Positions 1 through 40,224 of a stretch of DNA of 64,000 nt are shown here, one piece after another; within the stretch, counting starts at the first letter, position 1, and every line of letters begins with the position of its first letter. Both the position numbers and the translations under genes were made by a program. The notes under the pieces were generated by a model. It ran no database searches. It saw only the letters and a list, made by a program, of their open reading frames with translations, and had not been told where the DNA came from. The DNA is taken from the NCBI GenBank assembly GCA_026387335.1, contig JAPLLX010000004.1, positions 13,955 through 77,954 on the forward strand, given 5' to 3'. The stretch is from Candidatus Omnitrophota bacterium. GTDB taxonomy: Bacteria > Omnitrophota > Gorgyraeia > Gygaellales > Profunditerraquicolaceae.

Positions 1-1111
1 GGTGATCCATCTCAGTATCTTGGTAAGCGGTAGCCAGATGGACCTCAGTAACAGGATGCTCATTAAGATCCTGCTCACCTTTGCTATTTAAAAGCTCTTC
101 GTCAATACGAGTGCCTTCGGGAACCGGATTACCGGCAAAAACTATAAAATATGGCTCAGGTAGAGTAGATGCGCCATGCTGGACTACTCCGGCAAGGCCA
201 TATTCTTCCCTAGCTACCTTACCTAACTCGCCTAAAGTATTAAAACCTACCTTGGCCTTGGCTAGCTTACCCTGAGCATCCCTTACGCCGCCATGCTTAG
301 TCCCGGTCTGCACAGCAATCTTGGTTATGGATTCAAGGTCAAGTCCTTCTTCTCGGCTGAGTCTTCGTAATTCAGGGTTATAACCATCCATAAAAGCCCT
401 GAGGTCTTCCACGGTGCTATTTTTCTGTTTGGCTTTATCCAAACCCATACCGATTTCGCCAATCTCACCACCTAAATTTACCACAATGCCTAATTTATCT
501 AAACCTAACCTTCTTTCTTCTTTACGTATATATCTAGTCAACTCTGCTGTTAGCTTATAGTTAAGCTCCTGTTGTTCCTTATGAGTCAACTTATTCCAGT
601 CTACTAACTGAGACAGATCCACGTCTATCTGGTAAAAACCCGCCTCTAGTGCTTCAGTAATGAGTTCCTTTTCATCCTGGATTGCCTTTTCAGGATTCTT
701 TAAATAATCCTTAAGGGCTATCTGGAAGTGATCCCCCTGTAAATACAAGGTCTGGTTATAGCCTTCTTTAATAGCTGCAGCCAGCATTGAAGTAGTAAAT
801 TCAATAGGACGTTGGCCAGTATATTTTATTTCTGATTTGGCAATTTCCAATATAACCTTAGTTACGTTATTCTTAACAGCAGACTTCAATGCTGCCCTGG
901 CAGTATCATAGGCCATACCTCTGATGTTTATAGCCGGAACAGTGTAATGTGTCGGATCTTTTGCCTTTTGTACATATAAATTATGGACAGAACCAAGATT
1001 AATCCCTAGAGAGGCGGCGATACCCTTAATCAGTTGTCGGGATTTATTAACTATCTCTTGATTCGGGTTAAAGGTGGCATCATAGACTAATTGATCAATT
1101 AATACACTTCG
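1..1111 (-). other. Class II fructose-bisphosphate aldolase-like domain of the giant ORF, partial; an estimated ~115 aa of the domain lie beyond the window
   Basis: About 45% identity over ~370 aa to the stand-alone FBA encoded at 30799..32124, for example PAINIRGMAYDTARAALKSAVKNN against PAINLRSMSYDLARAIFRVAAKNN, plus LQGDHFQ, GGEIGEIG, TVEDLRAFMDGY, QTGTKHGG and VQHGASTLPE. Confidence 0.7.
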
Positions 1112-4100
1112 TAAGGCAGGTTCATTTAATATATTATAGCCGTCAGTAGTAACTTCCACTATTCCTGTTAAGGCGGCATCAAGAGCCTTTACGTCAGCGA
1201 AGTTAAGTCGAGGTTGAGCTAAGTCTGGCAATAGAAACTCCCTACCCGAATTTGAAGTAAGAAATAGTACTGCCTCGGGGCTTGCTCTCTTTATACGATT
1301 CTGCGAAGCAATAGGATCCTTGGTCTGGAACTCTGTGCGAATTACAAAAACACTGCCATCAGGAGTAATTGTAAGTGTATTCGTAGTCACCGTTCCTGCG
1401 GCATTATTAAAAGTTACGCGTTGCATTAAATCTGAGAACGTCGGGCCAAAAAACTTCTCCGAAGCTCCGGTTACTGCTGTTATAGCAAAAGTTCCGCTTC
1501 CTTGGAAATCTGCTGAATTGTAAGTTCTTCGCTGGGCATCAGCACTATAGCCCAACGCATCAAACATTCGTAAGTCTTCTTCTGTAAAACTATCGGCGGT
1601 TTGCGGGCTCACATCTTTTGCAGTCATTTTCTCGGAAACAAACCTATGACTAAACTGCCCATTAGGAACTAATGCTGCCACAAGCTCTGCAATAGTAGCC
1701 TCAGCAGAACCGCTCCTGCCGAACACCATCATCTTATATCCATCGAGGTCTAACCCCAATGAAGCCACTGCCCGCGGAGCAAAATCACCGTCGTCAGGGG
1801 TAAGTAACTTAATCCCGGGATATTTTTCTTGCAGTTGCTTGGCATCTTCAATAATTCTTAAATGCCGGCTGTCGCCTGACTGCGTAGGTTGTTTGGCAAG
1901 ATCCTTATCGCGAGAACCTAAAGTTAAAATTACAAGATGATTCATAAAATCTGCGTAGAAGCCTGTAAAGGCAGGGTCTGTTACTTCAATCCCTTTCTGC
2001 CTGGCTAAGGCAACTGCGATTCTGCGTGTGGCAATACTCGGAAGATCAAGAGGTTGAACTCCGGCATCTCTCGGGGCATTAAAACTTACCCCTGCAATAC
2101 GGAATTTATCCCAAACCGTTCTTCTAATTCCGCCTGGCAGATCTTTGAATAAAGCAGCTAACGACCAACTGTTAGTTGCCTGCGTAGCTGCCTCTTTAAC
2201 AATAAGGCCGTTGGTATGCTCAAGCGCGTCACCGGCAAAATAATTAATATTTACGCCTATTTTGCGCAATTCATTGACTTCGGCCTCAAGGCTTTTGAAA
2301 AAGTTTTCCGGGTCAGGGTCCCAATAGCCTTTCGCGTAACCCTTCCAGTAAATACGGCCTCTTTTTAGAGAAACTGCGTCATCTCTTTCTCCCTCATCCG
2401 CAATAACAATTATAGCTTCAAGGGGGTTGGCTTCAATAAAAGAGACTAAGCTTCTTCTGCTAAACTCAACTGCATTGGCATCAGCAATATTCTTTCCCTG
2501 TTTAGTGCCCACGCCTGCATAAAGAATCGAGCCCATAGCTTGGCCGATAGAAGTCTCAATTACTGCTCTTGTAGTAGGTTGCTTTAGGACTTCTTTAGTC
2601 GGGAAATTACCTTGTAACCTTACCACTTTTATTGTACTCTTTTTAAGGCCAAAATCTGTAAGCACCTTCCCAAAAGACGCGGGGATATCTTGATTTTCTA
2701 ATTCTGTGCCTGTTTGTAAAGCTAAGTTGGCGAGTGATTCCTGCGCGGCAGCGGCTTTTCCTTCTGCGGTCATATACGGCAGATAAGACTTAAGGTACTC
2801 AACGAATTGCTGCTTAAAAGCGCTCATATCTGAAGGTTCAACATCGCCTTTCACCACTGTTGCATCCTCCCCGGTAGAAATATTACTGACTACAACACCA
2901 TCAACCGGTAAAACAAATTTATTCTTTAATTCTGGATCAGCCAATAACTTACTCGCAATCTGGACTTGAAGTTGGTCAGGCATAGAATCACCTACTTTCT
3001 TACCCTGAGCTGCCAGAAAAGCAAGCGCCATTCTACCGCCGATTATAAAGAGATCTGTTTCTTTCTTTAAGGAATCAAATAGATCAATCTTAGTGTCAAG
3101 TTTTGCTCCGGCCAAAATAACTACTAAAGGCTTCACAGGATTATTACGGAGTTGTTTTAAGTAAGTATATTCATTTGCTAAACTTAATCCTGCGAATTTC
3201 GTTCCGAGAGCAAAAAATCTGGTGATTGCCTGAACAGAAGCATGAGCACGATGGTCAACCGAAAAGGAATCGTTAACATAATATTTCGCTATTCGGCTTA
3301 ACGCTTGAGCAAAAGCCTCGTTATTTAGTTCTTCGGCTAACCTAAAGCGGAGATTCTCTAAGAAAACAACTTCTCCGTTTTTCTGAGTATTCTGGATAAA
3401 ATCTTCTACCGGCTTACCAATACAATCATCTAATTTATACACCGGTACTCCCAGAAGTCTCTGGAGCTCTTTTGCTACAGGATCAGTCCTGAGCTTCTCA
3501 TCAACCTTTCCATTTGGCCTACCTAAATGAGTAGCTACAATAAGTTTGACTTTCTTGGCTAATAATGCTTGCGCGGTAGGAAGGATTGCCCTGAGCCTAG
3601 AATTATCGGTTATATTTAAATTTGAATCTAAAGGAACATTACCGTCTATGCGTAGAAAGACGGTATCTCCTTCTTTTACATTCTGTAAGAGACTATCAAA
3701 CTGGGAAAGCTCACCTGTAACAGGATCAATTAAAACTTTGACTCCCGGCAGGTTTTCCACTCCAAATTTGAATGCCTCTAAGAATGCTCCGCCGGCCATT
3801 GAGACATAGTCAAATTGATCCCTCTCTTTTTCAGATAATGTCGCTATAGTATCGCCTCCACCTACGATTTTCTTTATTGTTTTAGGCAAACTTAAAACGT
3901 TCTTGGCCGTACCTTTTGTGCCGTAGCTTGTAGATTCTACTTCCGCTACTCCCATAGGCCCATTCCAGAGCACCGTGCCCTTATCTCCAGCAGCTGAAAA
4001 AACCTCCTGCATTCTTTTCATATCAAGCTCCACGCTTGCCGGGCCAATATCCGCAATAACCTTGCCTTTAATGTGGGAAAAGGCATTTTCATAAACTATG

Positions 4101-7100
4101 AGGTTCACCATACGATTGGAGAAACCAGTTTCATTATCATACCAAGTCTCTAACCTGATGATTGTCTGATCAAGCTCATCATCGTAATCAACAATTTCAA
4201 TAGAATTACCATCCACAATAGTAGAAGCAGGATTACCAACAATAGTGGCGGATGTAATCGGATCCTGAGTATAAGCCAAAAGGCCCGCAAATTTATTTTG
4301 GCTGGCTTTTCTAAACGCATTTTGGATCTGTTCTTTAGTCACCTTACCCTTACGTACGACTAACAAGTCAACAACCGAACCTGTAGGGTTAGGAGTACGT
4401 ATTGCCCAACCATCAGATTTTCCGGTTAAGGAAGGGAATATTTTAGCTGCGGTTTTAGCAGCTCCGGTTGAAGCAGGCTCGGCATTACCTAATGCACTCC
4501 TACCACGCACAGGCTCTTTTTTATGCAGGTCTTGCTTGGCAAAATTCTGATCCGTAGTATAACCATGCACAGTAAGCATATCCTGAGAAACAATTCTACC
4601 TTCTATAGGAAGGCCTTCCTGTTCCAATGCGGAAATTTCATTTTCAAACGGTTCATCTAAAACAGCACCTACGGGCATTAAAGCATTAGTAGTGCAGCTG
4701 GCATTATCTTTAGTGAGGGCAGCCCGGGTTGGTTCAACTACACCCAAGACAATAGATTGTCCTACTCCTTCTGCCGGCGCAGTAATAATTACTTTCCCAC
4801 CTTTAATATGCGTAAGGTGAGCCATAGCGTCATCAGCATTCTTTAAATCTCCGGAACTTTCTGCGATAATTTTTATGCCTGCTACATCCCAGGGGAGCTC
4901 TGAAACTGCTTTTCTTTCGTTAACAATCAGGACTTTCTTCCCATTTATATCTAAAACACCTACCAGACTTTTTAATAACCAGTTAATTGAACTTTGCAGC
5001 TCAGCTCGAGGCTTTCCCCATGAAACTAAGAGTTTTTCAAGATAAGGAACAAGCTCTTCTTTCTCCTGAAGCATATACAATCTCTGGGAATCGATCTGAC
5101 CGTTGATAATCCCTTTTACCTGATCTTCTGTATAATTATTTAAAAGTTGAGAGATTTCCTTCTTTAATTGCTTAGGGGTTAAAATAATCCTAGTCACCGG
5201 TTTAGGCGTGGACTGCTGGATTGAATCTGCGGCTAAAAGCCAGGATATGATTAACATGTTGCTTGGGCCATTAATCATCCTGAGGTCAACATTCGGGTCT
5301 CCCTGCATAGCCCAGGCTATGGTCCTGCCTGTTCTACCCGGCCCATTTTCTCCCACAATTGCTGACTGCATCGGCTTACCTTTATATGTAAAGCGGGGCC
5401 GGCTTTTTCCGTCAAGAGACGGAATATAGCTGGAATTAGTATCCAAAAACTTAGGCCTTATAATTTGAGATTGCGCATCTTGAGCCGCGGAAAGAACGCT
5501 TTCAATTTCTTCGGAAATGGTTTGAGAATCTTTAGAGGTAACAATAGACGCAATCTTCCCTTCTTTCATACCATCCAACATTAAAGGAAGCTGGCTTAAG
5601 GCGAAAGTCGTATCCTCGTTATGTAAAACCTGTAGATGAACCATATTTTTTCCCGTAACTTTAGTCTGTTTACCCAAAACAACAATCGGCGCCTGTTTAT
5701 AGGTATCTAAAGAAACTTTCGAGTTATCCTCGGAATAAACAAGCTTACCCCTAAGAGCGCCTTCTGCGGCATCTTTAAAGATTTTGTTTATTGAAGCAAC
5801 ATCCGTATTAGAATTTAAAACCATCTTGACATCTAATATGCAACCGAGCATCTGCGGAGCAAAATGAACCCTTCCCTTGATTCGTCCGGATAAATCAGGA
5901 GAAAACATTTTACCCACATATTCATCTATATCCCTGCTTAAGGCAGGAGCAATATTATTTCCCGAAGAACGCATAAGAACCGGGTCTGGCCCGGAATTAT
6001 CCAAGCCACGCTGTAACGATGAAGGTGGCTGAACATCTGTAAAACTAACACCCCTGATTGTTTCCTGCGGGATAAGAGACAAAACCGGCCTTAAAGCGCT
6101 GACTGCAGTTAAAGCAGGATTCGTAACAATGACAAATTGAGCGCCCTGGCTTTTATGGCTAGCAGCTAACTGAGGGTTTTGGCCTTCAATTACAGCTTGC
6201 GCATTTAATTCCTTCCAAGGAAACTCTTTGGGGTTAGAAATTGCAGAAACCTTTAAAACGAGTTTCCCGTTTCTTCCCAAGCCTTCGGGTAAAACTTGAA
6301 AATTCTTATTAAACCAGTTTCTGAACGCGGGAGTTGCAGAAAAATCTTTGGTTAAAAGATAATAAAGGTTATCGGCAGAAACGCCGTTTACTCCCACTAA
6401 TTCAACGTCTTTACTCTTACCTAAGAGCCATTCACGGATAAGTTCCCGTTCCTGCGCACCGGGATTATTTATCGCAACTTTTACCGGCGAGCTCATGCTT
6501 GCTCTTGTTAATTCGTGTGCTGTAGGAGTCCCCGATGCATCCACTAGAATTCCCTTAAGTGTAGGAAGAAGCGTATCCACTACTGTTGTTATATTGAAAG
6601 TTGCTCCCTGCATTCTCGCGTCTACTTCCAGACCTGTAAGGATTTGACCACCGCTAAAATAACTCCGGATTACCTGTCCGGTAGGAGTACGTACTGTTTC
6701 CTTAATATTATACTCGCCTTGAGCGAAGGATTTTTTATAAGCGTTAAAATAAGTAGATTTAGACCAGGCGGCGGCGGAAGTAAGGCCGGTAAGGTCTTTT
6801 CTGTCAATACGCGAAGCGTATTTACCTTCCTGACCGGTAAAATGAGACTTAAACCAGCGAGAGAGAATGATGGAATAATAGACCTGCCTTAAGGAAGCGT
6901 AACGTTTGGAAAGATTCACTTCTTTGGTTAATTTAGGGATAATTAATTCGCGGATTAACTGGGAAGAATATTCGTTTAACGCCTTAGCCCGGCTGTCTTT
7001 AAAGCTATAGGTAGCCGAATCCTTAAGAAAATCCTGCTCCAGCATGACCTTTAAGGTCGCCTTATAGATATAGGCGCTGTCGTTGGTCTGACGGACAATG

Positions 7101-7654
7101 ATTTCATTGGGGACTATCCAGGGACGGGTCAAGGTAGGAATGGTTACTTCCTGGTAGCCATAGAGTTCTTCGGCCTTCTTATAAAGCCTGTTCCAGTATT
7201 CCCGGCCTTCGGGAGTTTCGGGTGAAGTAAATTGGGCGGTATCTTTCTTTAGCTGCAGGTCTGTCTCAAGCATGATTTTGCCTACGTCAGTCCTGGCTAA
7301 GTAGTCATCTATAATGTTATCTTCGGAATCCGGGCGCAGGTTTACCCAAAACTTGTCGCTGGGAAGATTTATACCTACTAGAAAATAATTTAATAATTCC
7401 TGGGTAGCGGCGTCAAGCTGTTTTCCCTTAAGCTCCTTGATATCGCCTTTATCCAACATTACCTTAATATTATCATTCTGGCTGTCAAAGGAGAAAAAAC
7501 GGATATGTACAGGCCTAAACCTATCCTGGACAAAGCCACCGGACATCTTAGATAAATGGCCGGCCAGATTAAGTTCGGTTGCGATACTGGCGAAACCTAT
7601 CTGCTGGAAGACCAAACACAGGGAAATTAGCAGGGAAGAAATTTTACGCCACAT
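1..7654 (-). CDS. Giant secreted multi-domain protein, at least 2551 aa in the window, with its C-terminus running off the window at position 1. Order of parts: signal peptide, ~390 aa unassigned, degenerate GAPDH-like, intact GAPDH-like, circularly permuted PGK-like, GlpX-type FBPase-like, class II FBA-like (partial)
   Basis: Hand translation of the reverse strand from ATG at 7654..7652 (AGGAGG 8 nt upstream) continues without a stop to position 2. The ORF track shows no competing long ORF in 1..7650. Motifs read directly: MWRKISSLLISLCLVFQQIGFASIA; NASCTTNALMP...TVHGYTTDQ...WYDNETGFSNRMVNL (GAPDH); RIDGNVP...THLGRPNG...LENLRFR...NDSFSVDHRAHAS...GGRMALAFL and WNGPMGV...GGGDTIA...MAGGAFLE (PGK); GKNIADANAVE...IADEGERDD...DPDPEN...TPDDGDFA (GlpX); PAINIRGMAYD...LQGDHFQ...QTGTKHGG...VQHGASTLPE (class II aldolase). 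Confidence 0.8.
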   Translation of the reverse strand, partial: MWRKISSLLISLCLVFQQIGFASIATELNLAGHLSKMSGGFVQDRFRPVHIRFFSFDSQNDNIKVMLDKGDIKELKGKQLDAATQELLNYFLVGINLPSDKFWVNLRPDSEDNIIDDYLARTDVGKIMLETDLQLKKDTAQFTSPETPEGREYWNRLYKKAEELYGYQEVTIPTLTRPWIVPNEIIVRQTNDSAYIYKATLKVMLEQDFLKDSATYSFKDSRAKALNEYSSQLIRELIIPKLTKEVNLSKRYASLRQVYYSIILSRWFKSHFTGQEGKYASRIDRKDLTGLTSAAAWSKSTYFNAYKKSFAQGEYNIKETVRTPTGQVIRSYFSGGQILTGLEVDARMQGATFNITTVVDTLLPTLKGILVDASGTPTAHELTRASMSSPVKVAINNPGAQERELIREWLLGKSKDVELVGVNGVSADNLYYLLTKDFSATPAFRNWFNKNFQVLPEGLGRNGKLVLKVSAISNPKEFPWKELNAQAVIEGQNPQLAASHKSQGAQFVIVTNPALTAVSALRPVLSLIPQETIRGVSFTDVQPPSSLQRGLDNSGPDPVLMRSSGNNIAPALSRDIDEYVGKMFSPDLSGRIKGRVHFAPQMLGCILDVKMVLNSNTDVASINKIFKDAAEGALRGKLVYSEDNSKVSLDTYKQAPIVVLGKQTKVTGKNMVHLQVLHNEDTTFALSQLPLMLDGMKEGKIASIVTSKDSQTISEEIESVLSAAQDAQSQIIRPKFLDTNSSYIPSLDGKSRPRFTYKGKPMQSAIVGENGPGRTGRTIAWAMQGDPNVDLRMINGPSNMLIISWLLAADSIQQSTPKPVTRIILTPKQLKKEISQLLNNYTEDQVKGIINGQIDSQRLYMLQEKEELVPYLEKLLVSWGKPRAELQSSINWLLKSLVGVLDINGKKVLIVNERKAVSELPWDVAGIKIIAESSGDLKNADDAMAHLTHIKGGKVIITAPAEGVGQSIVLGVVEPTRAALTKDNASCTTNALMPVGAVLDEPFENEISALEQEGLPIEGRIVSQDMLTVHGYTTDQNFAKQDLHKKEPVRGRSALGNAEPASTGAAKTAAKIFPSLTGKSDGWAIRTPNPTGSVVDLLVVRKGKVTKEQIQNAFRKASQNKFAGLLAYTQDPITSATIVGNPASTIVDGNSIEIVDYDDELDQTIIRLETWYDNETGFSNRMVNLIVYENAFSHIKGKVIADIGPASVELDMKRMQEVFSAAGDKGTVLWNGPMGVAEVESTSYGTKGTAKNVLSLPKTIKKIVGGGDTIATLSEKERDQFDYVSMAGGAFLEAFKFGVENLPGVKVLIDPVTGELSQFDSLLQNVKEGDTVFLRIDGNVPLDSNLNITDNSRLRAILPTAQALLAKKVKLIVATHLGRPNGKVDEKLRTDPVAKELQRLLGVPVYKLDDCIGKPVEDFIQNTQKNGEVVFLENLRFRLAEELNNEAFAQALSRIAKYYVNDSFSVDHRAHASVQAITRFFALGTKFAGLSLANEYTYLKQLRNNPVKPLVVILAGAKLDTKIDLFDSLKKETDLFIIGGRMALAFLAAQGKKVGDSMPDQLQVQIASKLLADPELKNKFVLPVDGVVVSNISTGEDATVVKGDVEPSDMSAFKQQFVEYLKSYLPYMTAEGKAAAAQESLANLALQTGTELENQDIPASFGKVLTDFGLKKSTIKVVRLQGNFPTKEVLKQPTTRAVIETSIGQAMGSILYAGVGTKQGKNIADANAVEFSRRSLVSFIEANPLEAIIVIADEGERDDAVSLKRGRIYWKGYAKGYWDPDPENFFKSLEAEVNELRKIGVNINYFAGDALEHTNGLIVKEAATQATNSWSLAALFKDLPGGIRRTVWDKFRIAGVSFNAPRDAGVQPLDLPSIATRRIAVALARQKGIEVTDPAFTGFYADFMNHLVILTLGSRDKDLAKQPTQSGDSRHLRIIEDAKQLQEKYPGIKLLTPDDGDFAPRAVASLGLDLDGYKMMVFGRSGSAEATIAELVAALVPNGQFSHRFVSEKMTAKDVSPQTADSFTEEDLRMFDALGYSADAQRRTYNSADFQGSGTFAITAVTGASEKFFGPTFSDLMQRVTFNNAAGTVTTNTLTITPDGSVFVIRTEFQTKDPIASQNRIKRASPEAVLFLTSNSGREFLLPDLAQPRLNFADVKALDAALTGIVEVTTDGYNILNEPALRSVLIDQLVYDATFNPNQEIVNKSRQLIKGIAASLGINLGSVHNLYVQKAKDPTHYTVPAINIRGMAYDTARAALKSAVKNNVTKVILEIAKSEIKYTGQRPIEFTTSMLAAAIKEGYNQTLYLQGDHFQIALKDYLKNPEKAIQDEKELITEALEAGFYQIDVDLSQLVDWNKLTHKEQQELNYKLTAELTRYIRKEERRLGLDKLGIVVNLGGEIGEIGMGLDKAKQKNSTVEDLRAFMDGYNPELRRLSREEGLDLESITKIAVQTGTKHGGVRDAQGKLAKAKVGFNTLGELGKVAREEYGLAGVVQHGASTLPEPYFIVFAGNPVPEGTRIDEELLNSKGEQDLNEHPVTEVHLATAYQDTEMDH
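1333..2572 (-). other. GlpX-type (class II) fructose-1,6-bisphosphatase-like domain with ~45- and ~20-aa insertions
   Basis: GKNIADANAVEFSRRSL aligns to GDKNTADGAAVNAMRIML; IIVIADEGERDDAVSL to TIVIGEGEIDEAPML; YWDPDPEN to AVDPIEGT; SFNAP to FLNAP; KLLTPDDGDFAPRAVAS to VFAIPDGDVAASIL; MMVFGRSGSAEATIAELVAALVPNG to VLYGIGGAPEGVVSAAVIRALDG; GTFAITAVTGAS to VIFSATGITKG. The metal-ligand Asp and Glu positions are retained. Confidence 0.5.
2845..4066 (-). other. Phosphoglycerate kinase-like domain, circularly permuted (C-terminal third first, then the N-domain up to the permutation point)
   Basis: The first segment IADIGPASVE...LWNGPMGVAEVE...IVGGGDTIATL...MAGGAFLEAFKFGVENLPGV matches the PGK C-terminal region. 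It is followed directly by RIDGNVP...ITDNSRLRAILPT...ATHLGRPNG...VVFLENLRFRLAEE...NDSFSVDHRAHAS...ILAGAKLDTKIDL...IIGGRMALAFL...LPVDGVVV, which is the PGK N-domain and the start of the C-domain. Confidence 0.65.
4090..5365 (-). other. Intact GAPDH-like domain of the giant ORF, with a ~90-aa insertion in the NAD-binding part
   Basis: AIVGENGPGRTGR...INGKKVLIVNER...LPWDVAGIKIIAESSG...KGGKVIITAPAEG...NASCTTNALMPVGAVLDE...TVHGYTTDQ...ASTGAAKTAAKIFPSLTGK...TPNPTGSVVDLLV...WYDNETGFSNRMVNL. The catalytic Cys and His are present. Confidence 0.7.
5460..6490 (-). other. Degenerate, probably non-catalytic GAPDH-like domain of the giant ORF
   Basis: VKVAINNPGAQER replaces the Rossmann INGFGRIGR. NGKLVLKVSAISNPKEFPWKELNAQAVIEGQ...AASHKSQGAQFVIVTNPA aligns to the GAPDH NAD domain. 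TNPALTAVSALRPV sits where SCTTNCLAP would be, so there is no Cys. SFTDVQPP replaces TVHAxTATQ, so there is no His. GRIKGRVHFAPQMLGCILDVKM aligns to GKLTGMAFRVPTxNVSVVDL. This stretch was re-translated carefully (6300..5821). Confidence 0.55.
7577..7654 (-). other. Sec-type signal peptide (or N-in signal anchor) of the giant ORF
   Basis: M-W-R-K n-region, 18-residue hydrophobic core ISSLLISLCLVFQQIGFA, then SIA. Confidence 0.6.
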
Positions 7655-7728
7655 TTTTACATCCTCCTTTTTTCTGGTTCCTCATTATTAAATACTTTTT
7701 AAAATTCCTTTTAATTCCACAAAAAAGA

Positions 7729-7952: not shown

Positions 7953-8012
7953 TCCGCGCATAGCGCGGAGTAAACAAGCGTTAAGCGCCGGAGGCAACGC
8001 TTGTTTAAGGAG
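7953..8012 (+). promoter_or_regulatory. Two strong hairpins in the leader of the ppiD-like gene (CTCCGCGC-ATA-GCGCGGAG, and AAACAAGCGTT-13 nt-AACGCTTGTTT), followed by an AAGGAG RBS
   Basis: Perfect 8-bp and 11-bp stems read directly. The second stem ends 1 nt before the RBS. Confidence 0.4.
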
Positions 8013-8018
8013 AAACTG

Positions 8019-9401
8019 ATGCTTAAAATATTGCGCCATAAAAAGACAGCCAAAAAAGTCTGGATATTCCTGGCTTTAATCATAATACCCGCCTTTGCGC
8101 TTTGGGGTTTTGGCGGGGCATTCCGTTCTCGTGAAGAAAATATGCCCGCGGGCAAAATTTTTGGACGGGCCATATCCAAGCTTGAACTTAAGGATTCGCT
8201 GAGCGCCGCCACAACCATAGCCATTCTACAATACGGAGATAAACTCCCCGAGATACAGAAATACCTTAACCTTGAAGGTCAAGCCTGGCAGAGGCTCATT
8301 CTGCTGGAAGAAGCCAAGAGGCGCGCAATTAAAGCTAGCGACGCAGAAGTCATCCAGGCCATTGAAGCCCTTCCCTACTTTCAGTATAAAGGAGGCTTTG
8401 ACAATAAAACTTACCAACAAAACCTGCAGTATATTTTTCGCCTTAATCCGCGCCAATTTGAGGAACAGATGCGCCAAGGCATTATACTCAGTAAGCTCTA
8501 TAAGCAAGTTACCGACAACACAAAAATTGACGAAAATGCGATCGGGAAAGAGTACGAGAAGCTAAACCAGGAAATAAGCATCTACTATATCTCCAGTCTT
8601 TCTGCTGATTTTATCAAGGATATTAAGCCCAGCGCCGGCGAGCTCAATGATTATTTTAGCAAAAATAAGGATATGTTCAGAGAACCGGCTTCCTTTAATA
8701 TAGAATACCTGGTAATAAATTCTGTGGTCCAGGTCAAAGAAATCTCAGAATTATTAAACAAAAAATTCACGTTTGCAAAAATTGCCCAAGAATTAAAATT
8801 ACAACCCAAGGAAACCGGCCTCTTTATTCAGAACAGCCCTGCGCCGGGGCTGGAATGGCTGGCAGAAAACCCGGAGATAATCTCTAAACTTAAAACGGTA
8901 GAATGCAGCCCGCCGGTACAGGTAGGTGATTTGTATTACCTGTTAAAATTAAAGGAAACCAAAGAAGCGCATACTCCGGAATTTAAGGCGGTAGAACAAA
9001 AGGTCAGGCTTGCCCTGATTAATACCGGGGCCCTAAAAAAAGCTGAACAAAAAATAAACCAGTGCGCAAAAGAGCTAAAATCCCGGAAATTTAAACAAGC
9101 GGCCAAAAAATGCGGATTAAAAGTCAAGGAAACCGCCCCCTTTAAATTCGCCAGCAATATTGAAGGTATCGGCGCCGCGGATATATTTTGGAATACCGCA
9201 AAATCCTTAAAAGACACAGAGAATAGCGAAATTATCCGCTTACCTTCCGGTTTCTATATAATTAAGGTAAAGGCCATCTCTAAAATAGACCCTAAAAAAT
9301 TTGAACAGGAGAAAGCAGGGTTTGGGAACAGCTTACTTGAACAGAAAAAACAGGAGAAATTCAGGGAATTCTTGACAGGGTTGAATAAAAAAGCGCAATA
9401 G
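8019..9401 (+). CDS. Periplasmic chaperone PpiD/SurA-like protein with an N-terminal membrane anchor
   Basis: The ORF-track start (TTG 8001) is probably an extension; ATG 8019 sits 6 nt after AAGGAG. N-terminal TM segment WIFLALIIIPAFALWGF, then a SurA_N-like region. No clear parvulin motif was recognised. Confidence 0.5.
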   Translation: MLKILRHKKTAKKVWIFLALIIIPAFALWGFGGAFRSREENMPAGKIFGRAISKLELKDSLSAATTIAILQYGDKLPEIQKYLNLEGQAWQRLILLEEAKRRAIKASDAEVIQAIEALPYFQYKGGFDNKTYQQNLQYIFRLNPRQFEEQMRQGIILSKLYKQVTDNTKIDENAIGKEYEKLNQEISIYYISSLSADFIKDIKPSAGELNDYFSKNKDMFREPASFNIEYLVINSVVQVKEISELLNKKFTFAKIAQELKLQPKETGLFIQNSPAPGLEWLAENPEIISKLKTVECSPPVQVGDLYYLLKLKETKEAHTPEFKAVEQKVRLALINTGALKKAEQKINQCAKELKSRKFKQAAKKCGLKVKETAPFKFASNIEGIGAADIFWNTAKSLKDTENSEIIRLPSGFYIIKVKAISKIDPKKFEQEKAGFGNSLLEQKKQEKFREFLTGLNKKAQ

Positions 9402-9437: not shown

Positions 9438-9620
9438 TTAACCTACTTTAATGCAATTTACCGGGCAAGAATCAGCTACTTCCTGCAGGTTACAAGTCGC
9501 GCAAACCTGAGTTTTTACGTGAGCGATCCCGTCTCCCTGCACCTGAAAAACCTCCGGGCAGGATTGCTCGCATAAACCGCAACCTACGCAAGTAGAAGCA
9601 TCAATAGTAACTTTTGACAT
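9438..9620 (-). CDS. fdx: Small 4Fe-4S ferredoxin (60 aa)
   Basis: CVGCGLCEQSCP ... CATCNLQEVADSCP; matches the short archaeal/Thermotoga-type ferredoxins. Confidence 0.8.
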   Translation of the reverse strand: MSKVTIDASTCVGCGLCEQSCPEVFQVQGDGIAHVKTQVCATCNLQEVADSCPVNCIKVG

Positions 9621-13859: not shown

Positions 13860-14894
13860 TTAAAAATTATCCTTTATATAAAGCGAGGTAGCGCGTAAAA
13901 GATGGTATATCTCTTCAGATTCGCTTATCTTTAGCGTACCTAAGCCGCAGGAAGGGCTGATAAACATCTGACTCCTAAGTAAAGAACCTTCCAGCCCCTT
14001 ATTAACTAACGCCTCAATACAGCTCTTAATCTTATTAACCAAAGAAACAGGACTGTCTTCTATTCTACCACTTTGGGTAGGCACAATACCCCAACAGATG
14101 ATTCCCCCTCTTTTTAAGAACCCTTTCAGGTTTTGGGCGTAGAGGACGAATCTCTCCTGGAAATTATATGCGTCAAAGTTAATAATGTCAATAGCCGGGA
14201 TATCCGTAAATAAAGACCAATCGGTATTGCCGCAGCAATGTAGCCCCAAAAACAGGTCTTTACTCTTTACGCTTTCAGAGAACTCGGCTAGACCCTGGAC
14301 TACATCTTCCCTGTTGAGCGAAGTATAGGCTGAGCCAAAAGTACCCAGGTATGGCTCGTCGATAAAAGCAATGATGGGCCTGGCGAATTTCTTAAATAAA
14401 TCTATCTGCCAGCGTAACTTCATACTCAAGGCTTTGAAGATAGCCTGTTTAAATACCGGATCATGCAAAAGCATGACTCCCTTTTCGTCGTTTATGCCGG
14501 CCAGAAAAGTAAAGGGACCGGTAACCTGAATCTTGATAAAATCTATTCTCCCTAAATCCACGTTACTAAGCCGCTCATAAAATTTATGCAGGCCTAAAGC
14601 AAAACTAGCGCTTAGCTTAAAATAATCCAGATCATCGTTAATAATTTTCTCATAAAATACCTCCAGCTTCTTCTCTTTATTTTCAGGGTTAAAGACTAAA
14701 CCATTGCCTTTAATTTCAAGGCAGGGGATGTTTTCGCTAAATTGGGCCAGCATCCCTTCGCGAAAATCCCTCTTGGGAAACTGCGGCCAAAAAGGGATGT
14801 TGGGCACAAATTTAAAGATTAAATCCAAAGCCTTATCCGCGTCCAGATGCGGAAGACTTCCTACTCCCGTAGCTAAACCTCTTATTCCGCTCAT
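13860..14894 (-). CDS. Uroporphyrinogen-decarboxylase-fold protein (MetE C-terminal / MtaA-CmuA-like methyltransferase family)
   Basis: 344 aa; HCCG motif (GLHCCGNTDW), consistent with the Zn-binding H-x-C-G of URO-D-like methyltransferases. Assignment is tentative. Confidence 0.35.
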   Translation of the reverse strand: MSGIRGLATGVGSLPHLDADKALDLIFKFVPNIPFWPQFPKRDFREGMLAQFSENIPCLEIKGNGLVFNPENKEKKLEVFYEKIINDDLDYFKLSASFALGLHKFYERLSNVDLGRIDFIKIQVTGPFTFLAGINDEKGVMLLHDPVFKQAIFKALSMKLRWQIDLFKKFARPIIAFIDEPYLGTFGSAYTSLNREDVVQGLAEFSESVKSKDLFLGLHCCGNTDWSLFTDIPAIDIINFDAYNFQERFVLYAQNLKGFLKRGGIICWGIVPTQSGRIEDSPVSLVNKIKSCIEALVNKGLEGSLLRSQMFISPSCGLGTLKISESEEIYHLLRATSLYIKDNF

Positions 14895-15352
14895 ACCTTT
14901 TCTCTTTTTAAAATACCGCTAGAGACCATTTCCACTATTTCTTCAATTTTTACCTTAAAGATAACGAAGTTCTCCGACATATTCAATTCAAAATCCTCAT
15001 GAGCCTTGCCCCTGGTAACTCCTTCTACAATACGCCGGGCAGACAAATCAACCTCTCTTTGCAATAAGTCTTTGACTAAAAGATCGTATTCCGGACCGCT
15101 TTCTATAATCTTAACCAGGCCATTTAACTGATAGCCCACAAGGCTGTGGGTATCCATAAAAGATATGGAAATCTTAGGGTTAAGGCTAAGATTGTGGAAT
15201 GTCGTTCCGATAATATAATCTACCAGATAGACAACATTATCTTCTATTTTAAGCAGAAATTTAGGAGCGGCATTAGGCCGGCCGTTAAAATCGCAGGTAG
15301 CTACACTAACAAATTCCCGAAACTTCAGAAGCTCGGCTATTCTCTTATTCAT
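14891..15352 (-). CDS. Pyridoxamine 5'-phosphate oxidase family (FMN-binding split-barrel) protein
   Basis: 153 aa; overlaps the upstream gene by 4 nt (ATGA). Confidence 0.4.
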   Translation of the reverse strand: MNKRIAELLKFREFVSVATCDFNGRPNAAPKFLLKIEDNVVYLVDYIIGTTFHNLSLNPKISISFMDTHSLVGYQLNGLVKIIESGPEYDLLVKDLLQREVDLSARRIVEGVTRGKAHEDFELNMSENFVIFKVKIEEIVEMVSSGILKREKV

Positions 15353-15363
15353 CTTTCTTTACT

Positions 15364-15861
15364 TTAAGGCTGTTTAGCGGATATTTTATTAATCAGCTCC
15401 TCAGGGAATTGATTACCTGAAGAAACTATCTTCCCGGAGATATTTATCACAAAATAAGTCGGGACCCCCATAAGCTCATAGGCCTCGGCGACATAGCTAT
15501 CTCTATCCAAAAGGACCTCCAAGTTCAGCGAGTATTTTTTCATAAAATTCGCCACCTTATCCTTAGGCTCGCCTACATTTATGGCTAATACTTCAATAGA
15601 TTCTTTTGCTAATTCCGCATATCTTGCATTCAACTTCTGAAGTTGATCCCGGCAATAAGGGCACCAAGTCGTCCAAAAAACCAGTAGCACTGTTTTCCTG
15701 CCTAGATAATTGCTTAAGGAAACCGGTTGATCATTTAAGTTGGTTAGTTGGAAAAGGGGCGCGGGGGCAGGATTATTTTCATAATCCTGAGCGGCAAAAC
15801 AGCTCAAAACAAAAGAAATAAAAAATATAAGTATAAATATAAATCTTAAACTTTTCTTCAC
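15364..15861 (-). CDS. tlpA: TlpA/ResA-family thiol-disulfide oxidoreductase (periplasmic thioredoxin-like)
   Basis: WCPYC active site; N-terminal signal/anchor; adjacent to ccdA. Confidence 0.8.
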   Translation of the reverse strand: MKKSLRFIFILIFFISFVLSCFAAQDYENNPAPAPLFQLTNLNDQPVSLSNYLGRKTVLLVFWTTWCPYCRDQLQKLNARYAELAKESIEVLAINVGEPKDKVANFMKKYSLNLEVLLDRDSYVAEAYELMGVPTYFVINISGKIVSSGNQFPEELINKISAKQP

Positions 15862-16527
15862 TTAAAATCCCCTTAGGCCCCGGTAAATAAAATACAGGCC
15901 TAAAACTATAATGATTAAAGCGCCAGCCTTCTTAACATAAGACATCCACCTGCCGGATTTAGGAAGATTTATTAATATACTGCTAAAGGTCCCGGCCAGT
16001 ATAAAGATCAAGCCCATACCGTAAGCAAAAACCACTAAGAGGCTCATTCCGTAGAAAATATTCTTTTGGGCTGATAAGTAGGCCAGGATGGAAGCCAATG
16101 CCGGCGTAAGGCAGGGAGACGCGATTAACCCGGAACTTGCCCCCAGGAAAAAGGTAGAAAGGTATCCTTTTTTATTAGTATCCACTTTCGGGGCCGGCCA
16201 GTATATGCTAAAAAAATCCGTCAGCATGCTCGCTCCAAATAAAATAATAATGACTCCTACCGCTATTAATGTAAACGGATGGCTGCTTATTTTACCAAAG
16301 ATCATCCCGCCCAGAGAAGCAATCAGGCCCAGGATAGAATAGGTAACTGCTATGCCGGAAACATAAATCAGGCTTAAAACGAAACTCCTTATCTTTGACC
16401 TGCCGCTCTTTGCGCTTATATAGATTACGCTGACCGGAATAAGCGGATAAACGCAGGGAGTAAAACTCACTAATACTCCGCCTAAAAAAGCAAAAATATA
16501 ATCAATCGGGCTACCTGAGGGATTCAT
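15862..16527 (-). CDS. ccdA: Cytochrome c-type biogenesis / disulfide-reductant transporter CcdA (DsbD transmembrane domain)
   Basis: Polytopic membrane protein; Cys in TM1 (SFTPCVYPLIP) and TM4 (IASPCLTPAL). Confidence 0.8.
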   Translation of the reverse strand: MNPSGSPIDYIFAFLGGVLVSFTPCVYPLIPVSVIYISAKSGRSKIRSFVLSLIYVSGIAVTYSILGLIASLGGMIFGKISSHPFTLIAVGVIIILFGASMLTDFFSIYWPAPKVDTNKKGYLSTFFLGASSGLIASPCLTPALASILAYLSAQKNIFYGMSLLVVFAYGMGLIFILAGTFSSILINLPKSGRWMSYVKKAGALIIIVLGLYFIYRGLRGF

Positions 16528-16822
16528 CTATCCATTTAAGATACGGTTTAAAACCGCTGACTATCGGAAGAGCGATTATTTCCGGGACCGCATAACTATG
16601 AGCTGATTTAACTAACTTAACAATCTTATTAAACTTATCTTTCCTGGATTTAACCATCAGGAGTGTTTCTTTTGCCCGCTCGACCTTGCCTTTCCAGGAA
16701 AAAATAGACTCTAAGCCGCTTATAATATTGACACAGGCAGCCAGTTTATTTTTTATCAGTAATTTAGAGATTTTACCGGCTTGGGATTTATCCTTGGCCG
16801 TAATCAGTATTATGATGTGCAT
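16511..16822 (-). CDS. cutA: Divalent-cation tolerance protein CutA
   Basis: 103 aa; typical CutA1 length and sequence. Confidence 0.7.
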   Translation of the reverse strand: MHIIILITAKDKSQAGKISKLLIKNKLAACVNIISGLESIFSWKGKVERAKETLLMVKSRKDKFNKIVKLVKSAHSYAVPEIIALPIVSGFKPYLKWIDESLR

Positions 16823-17286
16823 TTTTTAACAAGCTTGGCAAACCTTGAACCCATCCTTAAACATTCTTTCGTGGACCGGGAATCCGGAGAATCTATCGCC
16901 ACCGGACCGTAATGATCGCCCTGCCAATCACCTTGGATAATCATACCATGTATGAGCATAGCATTCAATATATCCAGAATCGTAGTCTCATTTCCGCCGG
17001 CGATATTGCGGCTGGAAGAAAACGCCGCGCCGACTTTACCATCCAGTTTTCCGTGGAACTTGACCGAATCATCAAAGAGTTTTTTGATTTCACCAGACAT
17101 GCTTCCGTAATATGTCGGCGAACCGATGATTAAACCGTCATATTTTAGTAAGTCGTCGGCGAGCGTATCCTTAACATCCTTAAGCGTTACCTCAAGGCCT
17201 TCATTCTCTACGCCTTGCGCGATTAATTCAGCCATTTTTTTAGTGTTTCCGCTGCGCGAATAATAAACTACCAGGGCTTTGGGCAT
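16810..17286 (-). CDS. Flavodoxin-family protein
   Basis: ALVVYYSRSGNTKKMAE FMN-binding N-terminus. Confidence 0.75.
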   Translation of the reverse strand: MPKALVVYYSRSGNTKKMAELIAQGVENEGLEVTLKDVKDTLADDLLKYDGLIIGSPTYYGSMSGEIKKLFDDSVKFHGKLDGKVGAAFSSSRNIAGGNETTILDILNAMLIHGMIIQGDWQGDHYGPVAIDSPDSRSTKECLRMGSRFAKLVKKCTS

Positions 17287-17287
17287 A

Positions 17288-17536
17288 TTATTTGCCTCCT
17301 TCGTCTTCCACCTTGACCGACCTTATCCTGCCGAATTGAGAGCAGACATCAAAAACAATAGTGGGATCTTCAGTAGCAATATTTATCTTAAAATTTTTGC
17401 CTTTCTGCCCGACGTCAACAACCTCCGCGATATCCAGTTTCTCTCCAAATTCCGCCAGCGAAGACTTAACCGCTTCTAAGGTAGTATTGTAGGTGTGTAA
17501 AATAAAACCCAGCTTGAATTTTGGTATGCGGATCAT
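17288..17536 (-). CDS. Small hypothetical protein (82 aa)
   Basis: No family recognised; ORF only. Confidence 0.3.
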   Translation of the reverse strand: MIRIPKFKLGFILHTYNTTLEAVKSSLAEFGEKLDIAEVVDVGQKGKNFKINIATEDPTIVFDVCSQFGRIRSVKVEDEGGK

Positions 17537-18276
17537 TTGATCATTATAACCGAAAGAGACCTTCCGGTATCCTTGCCTTCCCTGCGGAATGAAAAGAAAT
17601 CTTCGCTATCACAATGCGTGCAAAGGCCTGTTTCGGATATATTCTCTTCTTTTAAGCCCGAGGCGATCAATTGCCTTTTATTTACCAGGGCCAGATCTAA
17701 GTAAAAGCGCCCTGACTTTTCAGTTAATTCCGACGGGAAATAGCCCCTGAATTCGCCTGAAACTTCGTAACAGCAACTCCTTATGGACGGGCCGAACCCG
17801 GCGATCAATCCTTCGGGCCGAGAATTAAATTTACTCCGCATCAATTCAACCGCCTGGCCTAAAATGTTTCCTTTTGAACTGCGCCAGCCGGCGTGAATTA
17901 ATCCTATCGCGGGTTTACGCGGATCATATAAAAATACACAGGGGCAGTCAGCGGTAAACATCGCCAGCGGTAAATTCCTGACATCGGTTATGAACCCGTC
18001 AGTGTTCGGAATCGAATTATCATAAACCAGCGCTCCGCTGCTTTCATCAGTTTGATTTACATATCTAACATTAGTCCCGTGCACCTGCTCGGCGCAGACT
18101 AAAGCAATATAATCAATTCCTAAATTACTCAAGAATTTCCTGCGGTTATCTAAAACGCCCCTGGAATTACCGTAAGATAAAGACATATTCCCGCAGGCGC
18201 GAGTGCTAAAAGAACAGGTTATCCGGCCTTCTGTCCGGCCTTCTAAAGGATTATTATTTTTAAGTAATTTCAACAA
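17533..18276 (-). CDS. pgeF: YfiH/PgeF-family purine nucleoside phosphorylase / peptidoglycan editing factor (DUF152)
   Basis: CAEQVHG...ADCPCV motifs of the laccase-domain/YfiH family. Confidence 0.7.
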   Translation of the reverse strand: MLKLLKNNNPLEGRTEGRITCSFSTRACGNMSLSYGNSRGVLDNRRKFLSNLGIDYIALVCAEQVHGTNVRYVNQTDESSGALVYDNSIPNTDGFITDVRNLPLAMFTADCPCVFLYDPRKPAIGLIHAGWRSSKGNILGQAVELMRSKFNSRPEGLIAGFGPSIRSCCYEVSGEFRGYFPSELTEKSGRFYLDLALVNKRQLIASGLKEENISETGLCTHCDSEDFFSFRREGKDTGRSLSVIMIK

Positions 18277-18475
18277 GTTTATTCCTGGATTTATCGCCTT
18301 TAATAATCTTGATCTGGTATTTTTTTATCTTTAGGTGTTCCGCTAAGAGGCTGATAAGCTGGCTATTGGCAAGCCCCTCCTGAGCGGGTTTAGTCAGATA
18401 AACCTTAAACCCTTTTCCCTCTTCTTTAACCAGATTTCTGCTTGCCTTGGGGACTACCCTGACCGTAAAGGCCAT
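18260..18475 (-). CDS. YggU/DUF167 family protein
   Basis: 71 aa; VRVVPKASRN...VYLTKPAQEGLAN pattern. Confidence 0.55.
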   Translation of the reverse strand: MAFTVRVVPKASRNLVKEEGKGFKVYLTKPAQEGLANSQLISLLAEHLKIKKYQIKIIKGDKSRNKLVEIT

Positions 18476-18484
18476 TATTAAAAA

Positions 18485-19417
18485 CTATTTTTTCTCAATT
18501 TGCCTGGCATCCTGAATATTAACCAGCTTATCACTGACTTTATCCAGCCTTTTTTGCGAATCCTCATATTTGGTATTGGCATTAATCAGGTGGCTTCCCA
18601 GGATATTAAATTCTTCTTTGAATTTATCTATTTCGATCTCTAAAGCGCTTAAAGATTTTAATATGGACTTGGCGTTCTCTTCTACTTTTAAGCCTTTTAA
18701 TCCCAGACAGATAACCTGCAGGTAAGCGTAAAATGTGTTCGGTGAGACCGGAATGACCTTTTTAGACATACTGTAAGAAAAAATGTCTTCTTTAATGACC
18801 ACTTCGTAATAAACATTCTCCGCCGGTATATACATCAGCGCGAAATCATAGGTGTTCTCCTGCGGAAGGATATATTTTGAAGAGACTTCATCAATGCGGT
18901 TTTTTACGTCCTGGATAAATTTCTTACGCAAGTTATTTTTTAGCTGCTCATCTTGCGCCTCCAGCATCTTCTGAAAATTCTCCAGGCTAAACTTCGCATC
19001 CACCGGCACAATACGCTCGCCAAGTTTAATAATGGCATCCACCGCCTCCCCGGACTTAAACCGGTATTGTGTGGCGTAATGATCTTTGGGTAATACTTGG
19101 GATAATAAATTCTCCAGAAGCACTTCGCCCATCGCCCCGCGGAATTTAGGCGCGCGTAAAAGCTCCTGCAGGCTGGAAATATCCTTACTGATAGTAACAA
19201 TCTGCTTGTTAGTCTCTTCCAGCCTACCTAATTGCTCCTTAACGTTGCCAAATACGTTGGTGGCGCTGCCGAGGTTTGAGCCGATAATCTTATTGGCCTC
19301 CTGGAGCGACTGGTTCATCTGATTTAACCGCTCATTGACCTGCGAAGAGAGCTTAAAAACCAGCACGGTGATAACCGTCAGTAAAACCAAAAATGATAAT
19401 CCGATCATCCAAATCAT
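18485..19417 (-). CDS. rmuC: DNA recombination protein RmuC
   Basis: N-terminal TM, coiled-coil, and the RmuC C-terminal region (PNTFYAYLQ). Confidence 0.7.
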   Translation of the reverse strand: MIWMIGLSFLVLLTVITVLVFKLSSQVNERLNQMNQSLQEANKIIGSNLGSATNVFGNVKEQLGRLEETNKQIVTISKDISSLQELLRAPKFRGAMGEVLLENLLSQVLPKDHYATQYRFKSGEAVDAIIKLGERIVPVDAKFSLENFQKMLEAQDEQLKNNLRKKFIQDVKNRIDEVSSKYILPQENTYDFALMYIPAENVYYEVVIKEDIFSYSMSKKVIPVSPNTFYAYLQVICLGLKGLKVEENAKSILKSLSALEIEIDKFKEEFNILGSHLINANTKYEDSQKRLDKVSDKLVNIQDARQIEKK

Positions 19418-19447
19418 AAGTTTATTATACCACTCTCCTCTATTTTC

Positions 19448-20167: not shown

Positions 20168-20526
20168 TATTTGGCAAAGATTGTATAGAGCGCAATGATT
20201 AATAAAAATATTCCAAAGGCTTTTCTTAAAACAAGGTTGGAAAGCATTTCCGCCATATTGGCTCCCAGAAGCCCGCCGATCAAGAACCCGATACAGATAA
20301 ACGCGGCGATATAAAAATGCACGTGTCCACTATGATAATACTTCATTACCGCCAGAAGCCCTATCGGTAGGAGCATGATCGCCAGAGTGGTCCCCTGCGC
20401 CTCATGCTGCGACAAACCTACCAAAAAAACCAAAGCCGGAATAAGTATCGTCCCCCCGCCTATCCCGAACATTCCGGAAAGTGTGCCCGCCGTCAACCCT
20501 AAAACAAGATACAAAATTTCTTTCAT
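20167..20526 (-). CDS. TSUP (TauE/SafE) family membrane transporter, half-size
   Basis: GxGGG motif (FGIGGGTILIPAL); 119 aa with 4 TM segments. Confidence 0.6.
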   Translation of the reverse strand: MKEILYLVLGLTAGTLSGMFGIGGGTILIPALVFLVGLSQHEAQGTTLAIMLLPIGLLAVMKYYHSGHVHFYIAAFICIGFLIGGLLGANMAEMLSNLVLRKAFGIFLLIIALYTIFAK

Positions 20527-40215: not shown

Positions 40216-40224
40216 TTACCTAAC

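Follow-up and report, generated by a model that had tools for sequence, protein, structure and literature searches.

A putative, conserved pseudo-GAPDH next to an intact GAPDH domain in a glycolytic polyprotein of Omnitrophota

Why should a protein carry, directly ahead of an intact glyceraldehyde-3-phosphate dehydrogenase (GAPDH) domain, a second domain of the same fold that seems to have lost its active site? The question is raised by a gene at the start of a 64,000-nucleotide stretch of Candidatus Omnitrophota DNA (contig JAPLLX010000004.1, positions 13,955 to 77,954 of the forward strand), here called the window, to which the coordinates below refer. A first reading of this DNA (the original prediction) had described the two domains as a pseudoenzyme/enzyme tandem and proposed a scaffolding or regulatory role for the dead copy. 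The tandem stands, in that the dead domain appears to be retained by selection and a non-catalytic role is likely. The two-domain picture, on the other hand, is incomplete, as both domains belong to a polyprotein of 3,600 residues (P0130; NCBI MCX5695737.1).

A GAPDH fold without its active site

The dead domain (residues 391-705) is encoded by positions 5540..6484 and the intact GAPDH domain (residues 770-1195) by positions 4070..5347, both on the minus strand, as is the whole gene; the original prediction had placed them to within a few codons. These limits come from Pfam and PDB comparisons and from alignments, and for the dead domain also from the secondary structure of an AlphaFold2 (AF2) model. 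Between the two lies a conserved linker (residues 706-769; 5348..5539, minus strand) with the pattern ITSKDxQxI ... RPxFL ... DG, recognized in the alignments and partly helical in the model. Taken alone, the segment 5540-6499 matches the Pfam family Gp_dh_C with 33.9 bits (E 2.9e-8; cut-off 24.4 exceeded) and Gp_dh_N with 30.2 bits (E 5.8e-7), marginally under the cut-off of 31.7. Among solved structures it finds 137 GAPDH chains, with 1vc2 as the top match (E 5.2e-15). By these scores the similarity to GAPDH is far above chance, and the proposed alignment along the length of the domain is borne out: the domain is colinear with type I GAPDH from a Rossmann-like half (residue 391 to approximately 512) through a catalytic-domain-like half to the C-terminal helix. 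AF2 likewise gives it the full GAPDH secondary structure, with predicted local distance difference test (pLDDT) values mostly between 75 and 94. Sequence identity is 22-31% to any real GAPDH and approximately 23% to the live neighbour.

The active site, in turn, can be followed residue by residue. In MAFFT and HMMER alignments the remnant of the GxGxxG loop is N397-P-G-A-Q-E402 (6449..6466, minus strand) within INNPGAQER, so that the first Gly is replaced by Asn and the third by Glu, and the Asp32 position is occupied by Gly. The position of the catalytic Cys149, in TNPALTAV, falls on L515 in the phmmer alignment and on T516 in the MAFFT alignment (6107..6112, minus strand), and that of the catalytic His176, in SFTDVQPP, on Q542 (6029..6031, minus strand). 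All three losses had been named in the original prediction, and hidden Markov model alignment of the catalytic columns of both domains agrees, with no Cys or His equivalent in the first. The functional loss appears to be more thorough than had been listed. The STGAAK phosphate loop with the Thr208-Gly209 site has become LSRDIDEY, Arg231 is replaced by Phe and Thr179 by Pro. In addition to that, a deletion of approximately 25 residues ahead of the Cys helix has removed strand F and the strand entering that helix; strand E of the Rossmann sheet leads straight into the former Cys helix, and the AF2 model agrees. Fold homology is thus found, while the GxGxxG loop, the Cys149/His176 pair and the phosphate-site residues of a type I GAPDH are all absent. 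To judge from its residues, the domain cannot be a GAPDH enzyme, as neither canonical NAD binding nor thioester catalysis is to be expected of it.

The second domain retains every one of these motifs, as had been claimed. Its loop is G771-P-G-R-T-G776 (GPGRTG), the catalytic cysteine C987 lies in ASCTTNA (4694-4696) and the catalytic histidine H1030 in TVHGYT (4565-4567), and STGAAK, the Arg of AIRTP and WYDNE are kept as well. According to the alignments and AF2, the Rossmann half contains a helical insertion of approximately 85 residues (4940..5194, minus strand), which is conserved in the relatives P0131 and P0132 introduced below and absent from ordinary GAPDHs. A further insertion of 16 residues past the catalytic Cys helix (4595-4642, minus strand) is unique to the live GAPDH of the window protein. 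In the segment RMINGPS (5240-5251, minus strand) Gly is found where NAD-specific GAPDHs have Asp32 (N-D), and the live enzyme may thus use NADP(H), which would fit the gluconeogenic direction.

Relatives, retention and origin of the dead domain

Close relatives of the dead domain are rare. When 1.84 billion cluster representatives were searched exhaustively with this domain as the phmmer query, only three strong matches emerged, all of them giant Omnitrophota proteins; the next-best matches were ordinary GAPDHs of approximately 335 residues (E around 1e-11). The three are P0130 itself, P0131 (2,485 residues) and P0132 (2,437 residues). P0131 consists of phosphofructokinase, aldolase, dead GAPDH, GAPDH and a circularly permuted phosphoglycerate kinase (PGK), and it is without the N-terminal module (N-module) described below. 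P0132 has the N-module, dead GAPDH, GAPDH, permuted PGK, enolase and a C-terminal module (C-module). The fourth known copy is found in P0001, a contig-limited fragment of N-module and dead domain. Near the end of its contig the reading frame runs into a stop shortly past the dead domain and is not taken up again in another frame, the contig end itself being uninterpretable; a 5S rRNA-like sequence lies 5' of this gene (L007, approximately 90-200). A word-indexed homologue search with the dead domain alone gave ordinary GAPDHs only and missed P0001 and P0130. A scan of GTDB genomes gave no close relative, and a metagenome scan gave one locus, a member of the P0131 cluster.

The other dead domains share 53-61% identity with the window copy, and 112 of the 320 columns are invariant across the four sequences, which are not near-clonal (dS above 1). 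The invariant positions include motifs of the domain's own, namely AINNPGxQERELIR, LVGVNG, LLTKD, PALTAV, a Gln at the His position and LQRGxD...DPV. The fraction of all-identical columns is 0.47 in the dead Rossmann half, compared with 0.47-0.56 in the live Rossmann half, and 0.26-0.33 in the dead catalytic-type half. Nei-Gojobori estimates of the ratio of non-synonymous to synonymous substitution (dN/dS) between the window gene and P0001, which are rough with dS near saturation, are 0.22 for the dead domain (0.12 for its Rossmann half), 0.09 for the N-module and 0.61 for the linker between the two. This poorly conserved linker (residues 346-390; 6485..6619, minus strand) is 28% identical to that of P0001 and ends in the junction motif MSSPV. 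No stop or frameshift occurs across the 945 nucleotides of the dead domain. Since the copies share motifs of their own and invariant columns, and since dN/dS is approximately 0.2 as against 0.61 in the linker, the dead domain appears to be a conserved, retained pseudoenzyme and not a decaying relic: it is homologous to an enzyme, without catalytic residues, and it bears the mark of purifying selection.

The place of the domain in the chain is fixed as well. In all three full-length proteins it immediately precedes the live GAPDH and the permuted PGK, with the conserved linker, and this block is constant although the surrounding architecture differs. The constant linkage to a live paralogue that is typical of prozymes is therefore present in P0130, P0131 and P0132. 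Selection on the domain together with its fixed position beside the live one is what makes some non-catalytic role likely.

As to the origin of the dead copy, the dead and live domains do not match each other by BLAST at E 1e-2, and against free-standing GAPDHs the profile built from the four dead copies reaches 84 bits, as compared with no more than 34, 25 and -0.4 bits against the live domains beside them, which are themselves divergent. A recent tandem duplication was rejected on these grounds, and the sequences would fit either an ancient duplication or a separate acquisition of the two GAPDH copies. In P0077 (N-module, GAPDH, C-module) the residues from approximately 500 to 590, upstream of the live domain, weakly and colinearly resemble the GAPDH catalytic domain in its C-terminal half, with VWYD at the end; this stretch may be a second, more decayed dead-GAPDH remnant.

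The polyprotein, its module family and its surroundings

The minus-strand reading frame is stop-free by direct translation from position 7681 to position 2. Its start codon is the ATG at 7654, preceded 8 nucleotides 5' by a Shine-Dalgarno sequence GGAGG (7663..7667, minus strand), and the gene continues past the window start. The 2,551 residues encoded inside the window (2..7654) are identical, without a mismatch, to the first 2,551 residues of P0130, a protein from a Candidatus Omnitrophota metagenome-assembled genome (328-kb contig) that was deposited under the product label 'triose-phosphate isomerase'. Pfam and PDB comparisons give the order signal-like peptide, N-module, dead GAPDH, conserved linker, live GAPDH and circularly permuted PGK, followed by a domain of approximately 490 residues, a class II aldolase-like domain, triosephosphate isomerase (TPI), an enolase-like domain and the C-module. 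By these assignments a single chain of 3,600 residues carries most of the glycolytic trunk. An assembly chimera or a read-through of neighbouring genes was considered and rejected, as there is just one N-module and one C-module and as the block of dead GAPDH, live GAPDH and permuted PGK recurs in independent assemblies from NCBI, JGI, ENA and Logan.

The PGK (2825..4069, minus strand) was recognized by Pfam in two stretches and by BLAST with the unpermuted PGK of P0002 for comparison. The window copy begins with the C-terminal third (DIGP, WNGPMG, GGGDT), and the N-terminal two thirds follow, with the catalytic motifs kept. The permutation is identical in P0131 and P0132, while the PGK of P0002, which is encoded at a syntenic locus, is unpermuted. 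The start of the class II ketose-bisphosphate aldolase-like domain (2..1012, minus strand; Pfam and PDB comparison), cut by the window edge, keeps the Zn-ligand histidines, the TPI domain match has an E value of 1.6e-75, and the enolase-like domain keeps most catalytic positions. With catalytic motifs kept in the neighbouring domains, the chain looks like a working pathway and not a string of relics. Beside PGK and the enolase-like domains, P0130 and P0132 have no recognizable phosphoglycerate mutase domain. The domain of approximately 490 residues (residues 1650-2140; 1235..2707, minus strand) is without a family assignment: it gave no match in Pfam, in phmmer against PDB or with a three-sequence profile against PDB, and the cargo of P0057 shares 63% identity with it, that of P0282 40%. 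Its identification as the class II fructose-bisphosphatase GlpX was not adopted, the single pairwise alignment being colinear but weak (E 0.007).

Other fusions of this kind are found in metagenomes. P0155 combines tandem GAPDH domains, both with Cys and His, with HEAT repeats, P0201 consists of TIM-GAPDH-FBPase_3, and P0273 of TIM-PGK-GAPDH-FBPase_3, a gluconeogenic set; a signal-like N-terminus is seen in these three proteins wherever the N-terminus is complete. On L011 the P0131-type gene has a protein of 1,895 residues with pyruvate phosphate dikinase domains as its 3' neighbour and a TPR/HEAT/methyltransferase/VTT protein of 1,627 residues as its 5' neighbour (14642-20329 and 102-4985 are listed for both neighbours).

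The outer parts of the polyprotein belong to a large family. The N-module (residues 27-345; 6620..7576, minus strand, by sequence comparison) comprises approximately 320 residues, ends in RSYFSGG, and is 55-84% identical in hundreds of Omnitrophota proteins with unrelated middles, P0002-P0120 among them. The middle domains include PGK, glucose-6-phosphate isomerase, transaldolase, GAPDH, NUDIX, DnaJ, methyltransferases, FHA, TPR, HEAT and M48 peptidase. The helical C-module, of approximately 115 residues and starting with GGIDF, is found in 78 of the 120 best family matches; that of P0130 lies beyond the window and has the sequence GGIDFRPNAMLINYQPMGNF... The polyprotein has both features of the family, the signal-like N-terminus with the N-module and the C-module. 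No Pfam relative was found for the N-module, and no convincing PDB relative for either module. For a short family member AF2 gave a confident mixed alpha/beta N-module and a helical C-module with a disordered linker between them. In the family, the junction motif [AGST]SS[AP] (ASSAI/SSPV) is approximately 10-fold enriched (209 observed, 19.6 expected). P0130 has it at residues 388 (window 6479-6493), 2632, 2907 and 3470; the motif marks the borders N-module/dead GAPDH, aldolase/TPI, TPI/enolase and enolase/C-module and is found nowhere inside the block from dead GAPDH to aldolase. It might represent a seam left by recombination, act as a flexible linker or serve as a site of processing. No description of this family was found in the literature searched, and with its hundreds of paralogues and diverse cargo it may outweigh the pseudo-GAPDH as a discovery.

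Where in the cell the chain resides matters for any mechanism, as its signal-like N-terminus and its housekeeping neighbourhood point in different directions. The N-terminus (7577..7654, minus strand) consists of MWRK, a hydrophobic core of 12 residues and FASIA; it was recognized in a hydropathy scan, a heuristic and not a predictor result, as the sole strongly hydrophobic stretch outside the enzyme cores. All these fusions start with such a segment and, by hydropathy only, have no further membrane-type segment. Pfam revealed no C39/S8 or other peptidase domain in the polyprotein. Divergent from the gene is one for a PpiD-like chaperone (SurA_N + Rotamase_2 in Pfam; 8001..9401, plus strand), which is followed by a gene for a ferredoxin of 60 residues (9438-9620, minus strand). 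The same arrangement of ferredoxin, PpiD-like and family gene is found in a related genome at the locus of P0002 (L008-L010), which with N-module, PGK and C-module (1,165 residues) is the closest N-module relative, so the window gene looks like an expanded-cargo version at the same site. The next 18 kb encode oxoacid:ferredoxin oxidoreductase, RmuC, 4-alpha-glucanotransferase, shikimate dehydrogenase, LeuA and a prepilin peptidase; apart from the last, no type II/IV-like secretion locus is present ahead of the gene in these 18 kb, and by gene content the neighbourhood appears to be a housekeeping one and not a secretion locus. Three tRNA genes (Gly-GCC, Leu-TAG and Lys-TTT; 40139-40523, minus strand) are the sole Rfam matches in the window. 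For Omnitrophota giants with sugar-metabolism domains, a location facing the periplasm or the exterior has been predicted (bioRxiv 10.1101/2023.11.21.568195; 10.64898/2026.06.07.730766), and a Rotamase_2 peptidyl-prolyl isomerase gene is reported to be a conserved neighbour of their genes (West-Roberts preprint).

Possible roles of the dead domain and comparison with known systems

The polyprotein context, with its putative signal peptide and its multi-enzyme chain, changes which roles are plausible for the dead domain. Free GAPDH is a tetramer of 222 symmetry, PGK is monomeric, and dimers are formed by TPI, class II aldolase and enolase. Tentatively, and with confidence that stops somewhat short of calling it probable, we favour the view that the dead domain acts as a structural partner in the manner of a prozyme and enables two chains to form a GAPDH-type tetramer. 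Pairing of polyproteins through their dimeric domains would bring together just two live GAPDH protomers, and a second GAPDH fold in each chain would allow a GAPDH-like assembly of four protomers, two live and two dead. The extra copy, purely structural by then, would be free to lose its active site, and the remodelled former cofactor loop AINNPGxQERELIR, the best-conserved part of the domain, could have become a new contact surface or a ligand site. This view is preferred because of the fixed partnership of dead GAPDH, live GAPDH and PGK, the conserved linker, the selection on the domain and the competence of the neighbouring domains. The junction motif, which flanks this block but never splits it, was counted for the fixed partnership, and the tandem GAPDHs of P0155, an independent protein, for the logic of two GAPDH domains in one chain, as was the weak GAPDH remnant ahead of the live domain of P0077. 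In an AF2 model of residues 386-1195 (alignment of 14 rows) the mean pLDDT is 73.9 and the predicted template modelling score (pTM) 0.73; the larger domain makes up approximately 53% of the chain, and approximately 15% of the residues are disordered. A pTM as high as this with a larger domain of only about half the chain would suggest a fixed arrangement of the dead and live domains, predicted with some confidence.

Several observations weigh against such a structural partner. A second copy is not obligatory, as P0201 and P0273 carry a single GAPDH domain. Conservation is highest in the former cofactor loop and lower (0.26-0.33) in the catalytic-domain sheet, the main tetramer interface of GAPDH, a pattern that ligand binding or a novel interface would explain no less well. 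The closer likeness of the dead-domain profile to free-standing GAPDHs (84 bits) than to the live neighbours (34, 25 and -0.4 bits) means that a history of duplication next door followed by decay is not supported by the sequences. Finally, the predicted signal peptide raises doubt whether the enzymes meet NAD and ATP at all.

The conservation of the loop is also what would be expected of an allosteric sensor, whose remodelled nucleotide pocket would respond to a bound metabolite or nucleotide by tuning the adjacent GAPDH or PGK. It would be comparable to the inactive N-terminal half of mammalian hexokinase I or to the regulatory half of eukaryotic PFK-1. We consider such a sensor unlikely. In its favour, conservation peaks in the former dinucleotide loop and the next helix (AINNPGxQERELIRxWLxG), polar residues are invariant (H115, D155, Q157, R164, D167, D172 and R177 in domain numbering), and the dN/dS of 0.12 in the Rossmann half is as low as that of the N-module. 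Canonical NAD(P) binding is nevertheless argued against by Asn and Glu at the first and third Gly of GxGxxG and by Gly at the Asp32 position, and the phosphate-site residues are all lost. Surface GAPDHs are known to moonlight as adhesins in pathogens, and an exported dead GAPDH fold might similarly dock the polyprotein to a partner, an envelope structure or prey. The signal-peptide-like N-terminus of all these fusions (a heuristic assignment), the many non-enzymatic binding cargos of the N/C-module family (TPR, HEAT, FHA) and the prediction in two preprints that Omnitrophota multi-enzyme giants face the periplasm or exterior would agree with a binding module of this kind. It would leave unexplained why the domain is constantly fused to a live GAPDH and a permuted PGK with a conserved linker, whether or not an N-module is present, and we regard it as rather improbable.

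Two further explanations seem more remote still. The many invariant charged and polar residues could indicate a neofunctionalized enzyme, for example one supplying the phosphoglycerate mutase step that is missing between PGK and enolase in P0130 and P0132. As the domain has no similarity to any mutase and as P0131 has it without an enolase, a new activity is very doubtful and purely speculative; we know of no precedent for mutase-type chemistry on the GAPDH scaffold. A functionless relic of a duplicated or fused GAPDH, decaying in frame, would account for the disappearance of all catalytic features and for the internal deletion of 25 residues. It is hardly credible in view of 53-61% identity among four lineages with 112 invariant columns and motifs of their own, a dN/dS of 0.22 as against 0.61 in the linker, 945 nucleotides free of stops and frameshifts, and a predicted GAPDH secondary structure with pLDDT mostly 75-94.

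A broader picture can be drawn, which is improbable as a whole. Omnitrophota would export or anchor the chain via the N/C-module system, the dead-live pair would be the hub through which a self-contained 'pathway on a string', glycolytic or gluconeogenic, oligomerizes, and central carbon metabolism would be run from an extracytoplasmic compartment or surface structure, or delivered from there into prey. Were the extracytoplasmic location true, the same system would carry hundreds of otherwise cytosolic enzymes and binding domains (PGK, glucose-6-phosphate isomerase, transaldolase, NUDIX, DnaJ, methyltransferases). Surveys based on KEGG Orthology (KO) that score GAPDH, PGK and enolase as present in Omnitrophota may count such signal-bearing polyproteins, and current models of how Omnitrophota live would need revision if these chains were exported and the cells had no other glycolytic trunk. 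The polyprotein and its module family are the larger surprise compared with the pseudo-GAPDH, and the polyprotein is of interest for how a fused pathway might reconcile the differing oligomeric states of its enzymes.

Among known systems, the obvious reference is type I GAPDH itself (PF00044 + PF02800, TIGR01534), with which the dead domain shares the same two-domain fold and colinear homology; it differs in being without GxGxxG, Cys149, His176 and the Thr179/Arg231/Thr208-Gly209 sites, and in its deletion of approximately 25 residues. Prozymes are dead paralogues that form hetero-oligomers with a live paralogue and activate it, as in the trypanosomatid AdoMetDC and deoxyhypusine synthase. Here too a dead paralogue of the same fold, under selection, is physically tied to a live enzyme that is normally homo-oligomeric. 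In contrast to prozymes, which are separate subunits, the dead and live copies are covalently fused in a multi-enzyme chain, and the dead copy cannot be recognized as having arisen from its neighbour by duplication. Mammalian hexokinases I and III combine a dead N-terminal half with a live C-terminal half, and in eukaryotic PFK-1 the C-terminal half became allosteric. The window protein resembles hexokinase I in having a dead copy upstream of a live copy of one glycolytic fold in a single chain. The dead half of hexokinase or PFK-1 is, however, a clear duplicate with known ligand sites, whereas the two halves here are approximately 23% identical.

Fusions of glycolytic enzymes have been described as well, such as PGK-TIM of Thermotoga (PMC7729029) and TPI-GAPDH of stramenopiles (PMC3527533). 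They also join trunk glycolytic enzymes in one polypeptide, in some cases with a targeting signal, but contain two enzymes and no pseudo-domains, whereas the present chain has six or seven enzyme-type domains, a dead GAPDH and a permuted PGK. Nearest in taxonomy are the Omnitrophota 'multi-enzyme metabolic cluster' giants or Archaeovorins, proteins of at least 10,000 residues (bioRxiv 10.1101/2023.11.21.568195; 10.64898/2026.06.07.730766). They come from the same phylum and have sugar-metabolism domains (TPI, aldolase, FBPase and PPDK among others), a signal peptide and a Rotamase_2 gene alongside; the chain described here, in contrast, has 3,600 residues and housekeeping gene surroundings. 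Both preprints are silent on a pseudo-GAPDH, on a permuted PGK and on the N/C-module family, and no report of a conserved pseudo-GAPDH was found in the literature searched. Judged by its sequences, the dead domain thus appears to represent a new, rare and conserved pseudo-GAPDH family within the known theme of a dead paralogue that partners a live enzyme.

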